From the IMG/VR virus record IMGVR_UViG_3300009506_000008, positions 1-64,000 of that record: DNA of 64,000 nt; one strand, written 5' to 3'. The translations under genes were made by a program, and so were the position numbers. Positions within the stretch are counted from its first letter, which is position 1; each line of letters starts with the position of its first letter. This DNA comes from a virus. The notes beneath the pieces were generated by a model. It was not told the DNA's origin, ran no database searches, and saw nothing but the letters and a program-made list of their open reading frames with translations. This document shows, in pieces, positions 1 to 55,601 of this stretch.

Positions 1-482
1 TTGAAACTTACCCGATCCCGGCTTTCAGATCTACACCTGGACTGAAGAGAAGGTATGCAGGTCAATACTGGTGGCCTTTCTCGATTCCTGTCGATGGAGC
101 TGGCGAGGTGACAGTCTCCTTCGATATGTTTGGTTCGGAGACCATGCCTCCCACCGGGCCAACCTGCGTGTTCGGATACGCGGCTGGAGCGGGAGTTTAT
201 CAACGACAGCTGGCATCGAATGTCAGTATAGCCTACGGGGAAGCTCATTCGTTCAGCATAACGATGGAGCCTACCAAAGCGGGGATCATCTTCTTGATGG
301 TAGGGACACCAGATTTCCACGTCATAGACAATCTGGAAGTCACCGGGGACTGTCTGCCTAGTTTGGTAGCAAACTTTGATTCCCTTCGATATCAGTTTGA
401 ACCGTTCCCCGAGCTATCGGACACCAGCCCAACAGGTAGTAGCAGCACGGGCCCAGGTATCGTCTACGGATTCTCGTACTAG
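1..482 (+). CDS. C-terminal part of a probable virion/tail protein (5' truncated by the window)
   Basis: Frame is open from position 3 to TAG at 482; beta-rich composition; followed by the AGGAGG RBS of the next gene. Confidence 0.6.
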   Translation, partial: ETYPIPAFRSTPGLKRRYAGQYWWPFSIPVDGAGEVTVSFDMFGSETMPPTGPTCVFGYAAGAGVYQRQLASNVSIAYGEAHSFSITMEPTKAGIIFLMVGTPDFHVIDNLEVTGDCLPSLVANFDSLRYQFEPFPELSDTSPTGSSSTGPGIVYGFSY

Positions 483-3181: not shown

Positions 3182-3288
3182 GATAGACGAAGTGACAGTG
3201 GAGAGAGCCGGTAGAGGCTTGAAGTCGATGTTGTGCGTTTGCTTTGAAATATGTGAACGACCTTTCTTCAGATCGAGCGAGAGTGGCT

Positions 3289-3708
3289 ATGACGGAGTTT
3301 GCTCTGACGAGACTAAGGAAGAGTAACCACGGAACCTTCGGGGTGTTCGCGGGTCCGGGGTTCTGGTGTTTCTCCTTAGAGTTACCATGGAGGGACAACG
3401 AATGCAATTACTCATGTATACCACCAGGCTCATACGACGTGTCGTGTTCCTGGTCTAATGCTTTCAAGCGAAGACTTTACCTGGTGGAAGGTGTGCCTGA
3501 TCGTAGTGGGGTTCGCATTCATCCAGGTAATTGGGCTGGGGATACTCGATTGGGTTTGCGGACGCATAGCCTTGGCTGTATCTTACTTGGTACGAAGGTT
3601 GGAGAATTCAAAGGACAAAAGGCACTAATCTTGAGTGAGCCCAAGGTTAGCTTGCTTCAACGTACCCTACGAGAGCAGCCATTTCGGTTGCACATCATCG
3701 ACTTCTAA
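3289..3708 (+). CDS. DUF5675-like protein, putative lysis/cell-wall peptidase
   Basis: TFG..., LELPWRDN, SCIPPGSY, VPDRSGVRIHPGN, SLGCILLG motifs; next to a holin-like gene. Confidence 0.8.
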   Translation: MTEFALTRLRKSNHGTFGVFAGPGFWCFSLELPWRDNECNYSCIPPGSYDVSCSWSNAFKRRLYLVEGVPDRSGVRIHPGNWAGDTRLGLRTHSLGCILLGTKVGEFKGQKALILSEPKVSLLQRTLREQPFRLHIIDF

Positions 3709-3719
3709 GGAGGAAAGTT

Positions 3720-4334
3720 ATGATCGGTCTAATCACGAGTCTGCTAGGAGGGAGTATCACGGGGATCTTGGGCAACGTTCTGAACGGCGTTTTCGACTTC
3801 TTCAAGGAGAAGCGCCGGATGGAGAACGAGATCGCGCTCAAGAGAATGGACATCGAGATGCTCCAAGCCGAGACGGCAGCGGCTATCAAGCGGGAGCAAG
3901 TGGTCCAGGAGGGACAGATTCTTCAAGCGGAGATTGTAGCGGCTGGAGAGGCTCGGGTACAGGCGTTCCAGTACGACAAGCGCACCTTTAGCGAAGGGCT
4001 AATCGAGTCTTGGGAGCCGACCAATTTCTTCACCAAAGCGATGCGGGGCTTCCTCATCTTCCTTCTCGTTACCGTCGATCTCATGCGTGGGTACACACGT
4101 CCGGTGGTTACTTGGTTCTCTTGCGGAGTGACGGCATACTTCAGCTTGTACATCTTCAAACTCTGGGATTCTCGGGGAGGGTTCGAGCTACTGGAGACGA
4201 ATCAGGTTTACTCTCTCATTGAATACATCGTTTACTTCACGTTCTACATCACGAGCATGGTCCTGTCGTTCTGGTTCTGTGAACGGAACAGAGTTAAACC
4301 GCCGGAACGTCCAGCCATTAGAACCGAGGGGTAA
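3720..4334 (+). CDS. Holin-like multi-TM protein
   Basis: Amphipathic N-terminus, coiled coil, RPVVT and three hydrophobic segments ending FWF, typical of 3TM phage holins; AAGGAGG RBS. Confidence 0.65.
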   Translation: MIGLITSLLGGSITGILGNVLNGVFDFFKEKRRMENEIALKRMDIEMLQAETAAAIKREQVVQEGQILQAEIVAAGEARVQAFQYDKRTFSEGLIESWEPTNFFTKAMRGFLIFLLVTVDLMRGYTRPVVTWFSCGVTAYFSLYIFKLWDSRGGFELLETNQVYSLIEYIVYFTFYITSMVLSFWFCERNRVKPPERPAIRTEG

Positions 4335-4340
4335 TGAACA

Positions 4341-4562
4341 ATGGCCGCCGCCAAGAAGACCTCGAAACCCCGCAGGAAACCGAGGGCCAAAAAAGCACAG
4401 ATCACCGCTCCAGTGACCAAGAGCGGTTCGGAGAAGACGATCACCGTACGCAAGATTTCCAACGGGTACGTTATCAGGGAAGAGACGTACGACAAGAAGG
4501 GGACGTTCAACATCAAGGAGACGTTCACCAAGACGGCTCCAGAACTCAAGATCAACGTCTGA
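4341..4562 (+). CDS. Small basic hypothetical protein
   Basis: GAGGGG RBS; K/R-rich tail followed by ITVRKISNGY. Confidence 0.6.
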   Translation: MAAAKKTSKPRRKPRAKKAQITAPVTKSGSEKTITVRKISNGYVIREETYDKKGTFNIKETFTKTAPELKINV

Positions 4563-4778
4563 ACCTGCCCGACATTCTGCGCCCTGAAATTGCTCGTTGC
4601 TGTATGTGCGGTTGGTCCGGTGTTGAGTTCTGGCACAGTTACTGTCACACAGAATCCGTTCACTTGCGGTGCATGGAACGCTTCCTGAAGACGATGTTGC
4701 GCCGAGGGCCAGATCGTAGGAAGAATCAAAGGGCTTACAGGGGAGTTGATAGAAGGCGGGGGGAGAGAAGAGGGGACG

Positions 4779-4922
4779 ATGCCGTTGATGCGCTGCCAGA
4801 GGAATAAGAAACCGGGTTGGAAGTGGGGAAAGAACGGTAAGTGATACACCGGCAAGAGCGCCCGTGCTAAGGCGCTGAGACAAAAGAAAGCCATCCTAAG
4901 CACCGGATGGCGCGAAAAGTAG
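4779..4922 (+). CDS. 47-aa basic protein with in-frame TGA (candidate selenoprotein)
   Basis: MPLMRCQRNKKPGWKWGKNGK-[TGA 4842-4844]-YTGKSARAKALRQKKAILSTGWREK; GAGGGG RBS; hairpin just downstream of the TGA. Confidence 0.6.
4857..4876 (+). promoter_or_regulatory. Bacterial SECIS-like hairpin
   Basis: Stem AGCGCC/GGCGCT with loop CGTGCTAA (GU at loop positions 2-3); loop begins 18 nt after the TGA. Confidence 0.45.
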
Positions 4923-4959
4923 CCTGTGGGGTGGGGAGGTGGCGACCTCTCTACCTTTT

Positions 4960-5001
4960 GGCGGCTGTGGGGTCCCTCCTTTCCCCCACAGCCGCCTTTT
5001 T
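4960..5001 (+). terminator. Rho-independent terminator ending the late arm
   Basis: GGCGGCTGTGGGG...CCCCACAGCCGCC followed by TTTTT at the junction of the convergent arms. Confidence 0.85.
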
Positions 5002-5194
5002 AGTCAAACGATGTGAGGAGGCTAGACACCTCCCAAATCTTCTCCAACAGGTAAGCTACGGCTAATGAGTAGGCTTCTTTTTCATCGGAGGCTCTCACCG
5101 GGATCTGTCCGTAGTCGCTGCTGGTTTCCCAAGTCACACAATATGAACCCTTTTCTACCTCCATCACACCGATTTTGACATTACCTGGACTCAT
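5000..5194 (-). CDS. Hypothetical protein
   Basis: Last of the tightly coupled minus-strand ORFs. Confidence 0.5.
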   Translation of the reverse strand: MSPGNVKIGVMEVEKGSYCVTWETSSDYGQIPVRASDEKEAYSLAVAYLLEKIWEVSSLLTSFD

Positions 5195-54350: not shown

Positions 54351-55601
54351 ATGGCCTTCATTGCCAAGCTGGAGCTAGATCCCAGGGAACAGATTGCGAA
54401 GTCCATCCGCGAGTCGGATCGGACGATCCGGTCTATTCTGAATGAACTGGCTGCGGCAACTACTACCTTGGTAGTAGGTGAAAAGAACATTGGTAAGATC
54501 GAAAAGGCGATAGCAAAGGCTTTCGACACTATCGTGGAAGCGGAATCATCCCTGTTGGAGGCGGGCATCGCCACCGCTATCGAGGAAGTCAACTCTATGT
54601 ATGTGAGGGAGTTAGTGGCAACGTTCCCCCTGCCAGACCTCCTTTCTGTCAAGATCGAACTCCAGCGCCCGAACGTAGAAGCGGCAGCGTGGTTTCAAGA
54701 GATGCGTGCTGTCCAGATTCAAGGGGGAAATGAAGCAGTGTTCTCCCTTAGTCAGAAGATATGGCAATTTGGGCAGGAATCGCGGGAAGCTCTGTTAACC
54801 AGACTTCGCAACATCATCCACGACGGGACCGCCGCTCAGACTGCTGCTGAACAGATAGCGGCTCTGACAGAGATCACTCCCATCACAAACATCTACATAG
54901 AGGACCTCAAGCGCACCATTGCACGGTTGCACGGAGAACTGTCTACTCAAACTCGGGCTTCCATCCGAAATATAATCAAGGAGTACACTGCCTATGCTCA
55001 ACGTCAACTTGCCTCGGGGGCCGCCCAGGTCCTCAGAATACCTACGCAGAAGTTGGTGGAGGAGGTGTCCAAAGCAACCACCGTAGAGGCTGTTCAATCT
55101 GCAATTGACAGGTGGATGCGAGAGAAAGCCCTATATCATGCCAGAACGCTAGCGCGGACAGAACTTAACCGGGCGTTCAATGAGAACATGAGGAGGCGAG
55201 CGGAGAACTCACCGACCACGATTGGTTGGAAGGTTAGCCTGTCGCCTTCCCATCCGCGCCCGGACATTTGTGATGACTTGGTAGGCGATTTCTACTTCAG
55301 GGACGGGTTCAAAGGGATGCGATTGCCTCCCTGGCACCCCAACTGTATGTGTATCGCCCAGCCTATAATCGACACCGGCTACTTCAAGAGGATGCAGAAG
55401 CAACTTGAAACAGGGCGAGTGACTCTGGATGAGTTCACGGCAGAGGTTCTGGGGGAGAACGTAACTAAAGCAGCACTTCGCCAGGCTTTGTCGGTCAAAA
55501 CACTCATTCCCCGTCATGTGTTGAAGAACTTGCCGAAGTCGCAACTTGTAAAGTTCCTCACGATGTCGGACGAAGAGATACGAGCCTTTGTGGGACGGTA
55601 G
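54351..55601 (+). CDS. MuF/gp7-like minor head protein
   Basis: LARTELNRA, DICD, PPWHPNCMC. Confidence 0.85.
   Translation: MAFIAKLELDPREQIAKSIRESDRTIRSILNELAAATTTLVVGEKNIGKIEKAIAKAFDTIVEAESSLLEAGIATAIEEVNSMYVRELVATFPLPDLLSVKIELQRPNVEAAAWFQEMRAVQIQGGNEAVFSLSQKIWQFGQESREALLTRLRNIIHDGTAAQTAAEQIAALTEITPITNIYIEDLKRTIARLHGELSTQTRASIRNIIKEYTAYAQRQLASGAAQVLRIPTQKLVEEVSKATTVEAVQSAIDRWMREKALYHARTLARTELNRAFNENMRRRAENSPTTIGWKVSLSPSHPRPDICDDLVGDFYFRDGFKGMRLPPWHPNCMCIAQPIIDTGYFKRMQKQLETGRVTLDEFTAEVLGENVTKAALRQALSVKTLIPRHVLKNLPKSQLVKFLTMSDEEIRAFVGR

Follow-up and report, generated by a model that had tools for sequence, protein, structure and literature searches.

The window, the whole 64,000-nucleotide stretch of DNA that was analysed, corresponds to the initial 64 kb of an IMG/VR virus record that is complete at 101,020 bp and bears direct terminal repeats, and the best sequencing-run match to this phage record is a marine sediment metagenome. 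On its plus strand, at 4779-4922, lies a short gene with an in-frame TGA (Table 1), whose translation is MPLMRCQRNKKPGWKWGKNGK*YTGKSARAKALRQKKAILSTGWREK* and whose frame remains open across the TGA at 4842-4844. An earlier note on this DNA had described an open reading frame led by a ribosome-binding site, read across the TGA and closed by a TAG just before a terminator, and the sequence agrees with that description. A profile of the protein family to which the product belongs found one match only in the 101-kb genome, namely 4779-4922, with an E-value of 1e-21 across the TGA; a profile match of this strength spanning a stop indicates that the open frame exceeds what chance would produce. Because a strong terminator follows at 4928-5001, the gene is placed as the last of a long rightward late transcription unit.

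Table 1. Coordinates of the TGA-bearing gene, of its sequence features in the window, and of the column-6 TGA loci in related phages.
Feature	Coordinates	Strand	Remarks
Gene with in-frame TGA	4779-4922	+	47 codons, stop TAG at 4920-4922; two-Cys phage module (phrog_31267-like)
Shine-Dalgarno-like GAGGGG within a purine-rich run	4770-4775	+	3 nt 5' of the ATG; direct reading
Codon 6, TGC (Cys), partner of the column-22 Cys	4794-4796	+	TGA in relatives L017, L062 and L073
In-frame TGA at family column 22, proposed Sec codon	4842-4844	+	homologs have Cys there
SECIS-like hairpin	4857-4876	+	fold, geometry common to TGA22 members, bSECIS consensus
Tandem hairpins and U-tract, intrinsic terminator	4928-5001	+	fold dG -50.5, z -5.43
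Column-6 TGA loci in relatives	L062:2418-2570; L017:3001-3140; L073:8013-8159	+ (L062); - (L073)	motif and peptide scans

The start of the gene overlaps by 29 nt with a small Cys/His-rich ORF at 4565-4807 (+), which contains RCCMCGWSGVEFWHSYCHTESVHLRCMERF; no family match was found for this ORF, and its product looks zinc-binding from its sequence. The upstream neighbours at 3244-4562 (+) include a DUF5675 protein (E=2e-23), a 204-aa phrog_6637 protein that is presumably a membrane protein, and a 73-aa ORF whose PHROG match to a virion structural protein is marginal (E=0.068), and together these genes may form a lysis or late cassette. A second hairpin, of 7 bp, lies within the 3' end of the TGA-bearing ORF at 4890-4911 (+; GCCAUCC / UAAGCACC / GGAUGGC), with its loop 52 nt past the UGA, beyond the consensus SECIS spacing.

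An exhaustive phmmer search with the window peptide, read with Cys at the TGA (P0001), returned 379 representative clusters at E<=1e-3. The best E-values, 3e-11 with phmmer, 1e-17 with tblastn and 1e-21 with the profile, correspond to a whole-module match to a phage family. The phmmer match almost always covers residues 1-46 of proteins that range from 45 to ~1500 aa, and the module itself, of ~40 aa with two Cys, is either free-standing or N-terminal in MuF, ADP-ribosyltransferase and DUF2213 proteins. The domains identified in the long homologs are Phage_Mu_F / SPP1 gp7, ADP-ribosyltransferase exoenzyme, DUF2213, and inteins or HINT; in P0007, P0060, P0009 and P0012, for example, the module heads ADP-ribosyltransferase exoenzyme, pretoxin-HINT, intein and MuF proteins. 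The module resembles a common 'address' placed at the N-terminus of phage proteins that are packaged or ejected. Matched directly to phrog_31267, the window peptide scores weakly (E=0.055) and the homolog P0005 reaches 9.7e-6. No family for P0001 was found in Pfam and NCBIfam, deposited phage genomes gave no matches in DNA and tblastn searches, and the matches in the ESM Atlas were unnamed viral clusters only.

The AF2 model of the module, computed from a 79-row alignment, has a pLDDT of 92, with strands at residues 3-8, 11-16 and 22-24 and a helix at 28-41; as modelled, the module protein is small and basic and consists of three beta strands and one helix. A Foldseek search of the PDB with this model gave no match at E<=0.001, and the best VIA-align scores (Z 3.4-4.2), obtained with AP2-domain chains and dsRBDs, represent a weak resemblance. 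The links to MuF and ADP-ribosyltransferase proteins, together with the late-operon position, suggest that the module protein is head-associated or packaged. The genome's own MuF gene, at 54351-55601, is intact under table 11, uses ordinary codons for its Cys residues and lacks the module, and a search for MuF in all but three of the other TGA-bearing contigs found none. In three TGA-bearing relatives, a large terminase gene lies directly 3' of the free-standing module (L058:8283-8450 (-), L067:5621-5776 and L068:4127-4281), with a stop/start overlap, TAATG, between the two genes in L058 and a P22-type portal after the large terminase gene in L068. The slot just upstream of the large terminase is usually that of a small terminase or packaging accessory gene.

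The two Cys columns of the module are almost invariant, with Cys at column 22 in 149/151 homologs and at column 6 in 148/151. The earlier note had cited a motif of similar small phage proteins that would place the TGA at a Cys position, and the homologs agree with it. Among the IMG/VR loci collected with unbiased peptide patterns, 54/56 have Cys22, while L009 and its identical copy L018 read GTC (Val). Only two full-length homologs are without Cys22, P0105 (V/V) and P0148 (G/K), and both are also without Cys6. Since these proteins have lost both residues, columns 6 and 22 behave as a pair, and we infer from their joint conservation that Cys6 and Cys22 are linked, either covalently or by a metal bridge. 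The window peptide itself carries Cys6 (TGC) with a TGA at position 22, and has both members of the pair only if the UGA stands for Sec.

Motif scans that demanded a TGA at column 22 identified at least five further distinct sequences, namely the L058 group, L061, L062, L067 and L068. Within the L058 group, L058 equals L063, and these, with L064, L065 and L066, are records of one phage from four datasets. A TGA at column 6 was observed in three sequences (L017, L062 and L073), with L062 carrying a TGA at both columns; L017, which derives from the unbiased peptide set, starts with TTG behind an AGGAGG ribosome-binding site. With the window included, nine TGA codons occur in eight distinct sequences, all of them on the two Cys columns, and the members found have no in-frame stop at the remaining module columns. 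By comparison, 8.3% of the stop-creating single-base changes in the module fall on the two Cys codons. Control scans of IMG/VR for stops at Tyr23 or Trp16 returned 0 matches, and they are weak controls because the counts are small and the TGA scans were targeted. This targeting means that the unbiased part of the argument consists of L017 and of the selection test given below. L062 (U,U), L067 (C,U) and P0017 (C,C) are 79-90% identical, and TGA members interleave with Cys members, which points to repeated Cys/Sec exchange.

Other scans bear on the reach of these searches. The narrow motif GWKWGxxGx-TGA-Y had 0 matches in IMG/VR, and so had a pattern that set Cys6 and the GW motif 18-24 nt apart, a range outside which the short L058 type falls. 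The candidates L069-L071, from a genome-contig scan for a TGA at column 22, were rejected as false positives, with nothing else found there, and L060, from the metagenome scan for the same column, was likewise a false positive. As the genome-contig scan yielded false positives only, a prophage with a named host was not found.

The codons that follow the TGA carry a clear signature of constraint in pairs of related sequences. Over 27 codons past the TGA, L062 and L067 differ with a pS of 0.58 and a pN of 0.04, and over 14 codons past the TGA, L058 and L068 differ with a pS of 0.60 and a pN of 0. Low pN against high pS after the TGA implies that the codons past the UGA are translated in at least two lineages; judged from these sequence comparisons, the TGA has persisted there over long divergence while purifying selection acted on the codons behind it. 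Several relatives retain the TGA together with the hairpin and show purifying selection past it; the earlier note had named the lack of any relative with both TGA and hairpin as the mark of a simple nonsense mutation. In the window lineage, a second close TGA-bearing relative was not found and the nearest relatives are 69% identical; the selection result accordingly covers L058, L062, L067 and L068.

The hairpin that the earlier note had drawn, with 6 bp and a loop 18 nt past the TGA, is indeed the MFE structure, at -10.8 kcal/mol. It pairs AGCGCC (4857-4862) with GGCGCU (4871-4876) around the loop CGUGCUAA (4863-4870), and starts 12 nt past the UGA, with the loop starting at 18 nt. Compared with shuffled sequence it has a z of -0.77 to -0.93 and is, taken alone, not unusual for its composition; the case consequently rests on the comparison with relatives. 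The published bSECIS consensus specifies a loop of 3-9 nt, a stem of 4-16 bp, an MFE <=-7.5 kcal/mol and a distance of 16-37 nt from the UGA (PMC13188914), as well as a G in the first two loop bases, mostly as G[G|U] (PMC13188914). The window hairpin agrees with this consensus in full, with an 8-nt loop, 6 bp, a G followed by U from the second loop base, and 18 nt of spacing. The agreement extends to the hairpins of L058, L068 and L061. In L062 and L067 the loop opens with AA, against the loop-G rule, and the local fold of L062 (-6.7 kcal/mol) is outside the energy limit.

The comparison with relatives associates this geometry with the TGA. A stem of at least 4 bp with its 5' arm ending 18 nt past the UGA is present in 6/6 members with a TGA at column 22 and in 2/41 non-TGA members (Fisher p=2.6e-6, or 1e-4 with the six collapsed to four lineages); the loop is of 8 nt in five of the TGA members and of 5 nt in L061. 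Local folding energies follow the same division, with a mean of -10.1 kcal/mol for the TGA members versus -5.8 kcal/mol for the others (Mann-Whitney p=0.004). In the six-sequence alignment, a 4-bp core is found in 6/6, one pair shows a compensatory change (C-G to A-U), and pairing holds in 78% of cells versus 22-50% with the partner slid. The window, L058 and L068, whose proteins are 50-60% identical, have in common an identical run of 14 nt, GCCCGTGCTAAGGC, and the same loop as the window is present in these two TGA lineages; L061 has the loop start CGUGC in common with them. At the same columns, the Cys members L004 (ARAKA) and L006 (ARARA) use codons that differ from GCCCGTGCTAAGGC. The window stem is the longest among the TGA members, the conserved core is only 4 bp, and the stem is partly a consequence of conserved Ala codons.

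Two non-TGA relatives also have a 7-bp hairpin at the SECIS-like position, L009:3001-3117 (Val, GTC) and L002:3001-3123 (Cys), and the hairpin is thus not exclusive to TGA members; in these two it may be left over from Sec coding or precede it. The hairpins that follow column-6 TGAs are heterogeneous. An Rfam search of 4600-5100 gave no SECIS family among the matches to E=10, a null result that carries little weight because sequence-based models capture bacterial SECIS elements poorly.

Across the genome, TGA behaves as a normal stop codon: 42/100 long ORFs end in it, and table 11 gives a coding density of 92%. Use of TGA as an ordinary stop elsewhere excludes global recoding, in line with what the earlier note had argued, and TGA is also a normal stop in most (4/6) of the other TGA-bearing contigs checked. 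A tRNA search of the whole genome found none, and the other TGA contigs yielded no suppressor tRNA. Likewise, the phage genome was searched for tRNA-Sec, SelA, SelB and SelD and has none of them, from which it follows that the phage would depend wholly on its host. A crude genome-wide screen for ORF-TGA-ORF arrangements, judged by eye, gave nothing convincing. Four same-frame ORFs separated by TGA on the minus strand at 98.4-100.9 kb were dismissed, being the antisense image of a gene on the plus strand; that gene, of 899+ aa, occupies L074:824-3520 (+), equal to genome positions 98323-101019, up to the record end, and its open frame continues from there into window 3-482 across the terminal repeat.

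The identity of the base was considered at the level of contigs, since a sequencing error had been raised as a possible explanation. In the Logan assembly of the probable source run (X1), a 25.9-kb contig with a mean depth of 13 reads the same TGA at 4842-4844, so that a second assembly reproduces the codon. Runs X2, X3 and X5 contain near-identical phage DNA on contigs that do not span 4842-4844; coverage of the TGA thus comes from the probable source run only, and contigs hide minor variants. No RNA runs were present among the sequencing runs listed with the phage DNA.

Taken together, these comparisons make it probable that the UGA at codon 22 stands for selenocysteine in the 47-residue protein encoded by 4779-4922, and hence that the product is a phage selenoprotein. 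We infer that the residue is Sec rather than another amino acid, that its insertion depends on SelB, that the host is competent for it, and that the pair has the corresponding chemistry. In the proposed mechanism, host SelB with Sec-tRNA(Sec) would bind the hairpin at 4857-4876 and deliver Sec at the UGA in competition with release factor 2, after which translation would run to the TAG at 4920. Sec22 might then form a selenylsulfide with Cys6, and the two Sec residues of L062 a diselenide, both of which are speculative. A selenylsulfide holds at a lower redox potential than a disulfide, and we speculate that it could help in anoxic sediment. For the family as a whole, we hold with moderate confidence that in a phage-specific group of small proteins, which are probably associated with the virion, one or both Cys of the pair have repeatedly been replaced by Sec (C..U, U..C and U..U) by means of host SelB and a minimal in-ORF hairpin, possibly preserving a cross-link in reducing, anoxic habitats.

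The reading as selenocysteine has to be weighed against other ways in which a TGA could come to interrupt this gene. A nonsense mutation of recent origin in the window phage, which would mean a defunct or decaying gene here even with relatives that truly encode Sec, appears rather doubtful to us. It would take one base change from TGC or TGT to TGA, a close TGA-bearing relative of the window lineage was not found (which leaves selection past this stop unmeasurable), the closest hairpin-bearing relative, L002, has Cys, and one sample covers the site. However, the complete 101-kb genome has no other copy of the module, the family-invariant residues past the stop are all intact, the gene's hairpin is the longest of the TGA members with the loop CGUGCUAA as in the independent L058 and L068, and the TGA falls on the exact column where five other sequences have TGA. 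Leaky termination independent of Sec, in which a near-cognate tRNA (Trp, Cys or Arg) rarely reads the UGA, perhaps with the aid of the hairpin, would produce a 21-residue peptide and little full-length protein. Downstream purifying selection is compatible with such a process, given that it shows continued translation and not the identity of the residue, and the hairpin is short, unremarkable alone, and devoid of the loop G in L062 and L067. We nevertheless regard it as unlikely, because 9/9 TGA codons (8 sequences) lie on two ~99% conserved Cys columns where only 8.3% of the possible nonsense changes fall, a regulatory read-through stop has no reason to occupy an essential Cys, and Trp or Arg would break a pair that is otherwise kept or lost jointly. 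Alternation of Sec and Cys at a conserved Cys is, by contrast, the standard signature of selenoproteins (PMC13188914).

The two remaining explanations concern the base itself and the genetic code. A sequencing or assembly error that conceals a true TGC or TGT involves a single-base difference, and the support for the TGA comes from contigs only; with Logan's independent assembly giving the same base at a mean depth of 13, and with TGA at column 22 recurring in unrelated assemblies of other phages, such an error is very improbable. Least credible is that TGA is a sense codon throughout in the phage or its host, whether by code 4 or 25 or by a suppressor tRNA of the phage. In favour of the idea stands the precedent of certain uncultured phages whose stop codons are recoded. 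In the present phage, though, TGA ends 42/100 long ORFs at a coding density of 92% and the MuF gene is intact, all under table 11; the genome is without a tRNA and the other TGA contigs without a suppressor, with TGA a normal stop in 4/6 of these contigs; and the series of ORFs joined by TGA at 98-101 kb mirrors a plus-strand gene on its antisense strand.

If the selenocysteine reading is correct, phages exploit a costly, host-specific form of recoding for a protein that is likely packaged in the virion, and their host range would be tied to the Sec trait of the host, which offers a new marker for host prediction. Such genes would be systematically truncated by standard gene callers. The occurrence of one Cys pair in S-S, Se-S and Se-Se versions would amount to a natural experiment on the replacement of sulfur by selenium, within a selenoprotein family native to bacteriophages and endowed with natural selenylsulfide and diselenide variants.

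The mechanism would probably be of a known kind, a Sec codon, in a new setting, a phage-specific two-Cys module. That phage selenoproteins are scarcely described, as the earlier note had remarked, is consistent with our full-text literature search, in which a natural bacteriophage selenoprotein was not found. A 2026 review of prokaryotic selenoproteomes never mentions a phage or virus (PMC13188914), and a 2021 review of viral recoding lists two poxvirus GPx genes and no other viral selenoproteins (PMC8310308). The closest parallel in mechanism is provided by bacterial genes with an in-ORF SECIS read by SelB, with E. coli fdhF as the prototype (PMC13188914 Fig. 2A), which resemble the window gene in having the UGA at the Cys column of homologs, a stem-loop just 3' of the UGA within the coding sequence, and Cys and Sec forms that interleave in one family. 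The window gene differs from them in being viral, in a phage that carries no Sec machinery. Its stem is short compared with the bacterial prototype (4-6 bp in the TGA members), and two lineages are without the loop G. Unlike the known selenoprotein oxidoreductases, the window protein is a 47-residue module tied in relatives to head-internal proteins. Among viruses, the GPx selenoproteins of the poxviruses molluscum contagiosum and fowlpox, derived from a captured host GPx gene (PMC8310308), are alike in that a virus-encoded gene relies on the host Sec machinery, and the fowlpox SECIS is also located within the coding region (PMC8310308). These are eukaryotic viruses with a eukaryotic SECIS, whereas the window family is phage-specific and has a bacterial-type element.

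With regard to the protein itself, natural diselenide and selenylsulfide pairs exist in selenoproteins, such as the UxxU of SelL. The module family is comparable in that C..U, U..C and U..U variants of one pair occur, with U..U in L062, and it differs from SelL-type CxxC pairs in that its two residues are 15 apart in a protein that lacks the thioredoxin fold, their bonding being only presumed. The nearest relative of the window protein is the phrog_31267 module, which is also the N-terminal module of MuF/SPP1 gp7-type proteins (PF04233 and TIGR01641 in the fused relatives). It has the same predicted fold and the common motif MP-x3-C-x6-G-W-K-W-G-x2-G-K-C-Y-x-G...A-x2-Q-x2-A-I. In contrast to the MuF-fused module, that of the window is free-standing, is encoded by the last gene of a late unit, and has UGA as the codon for its second Cys position.
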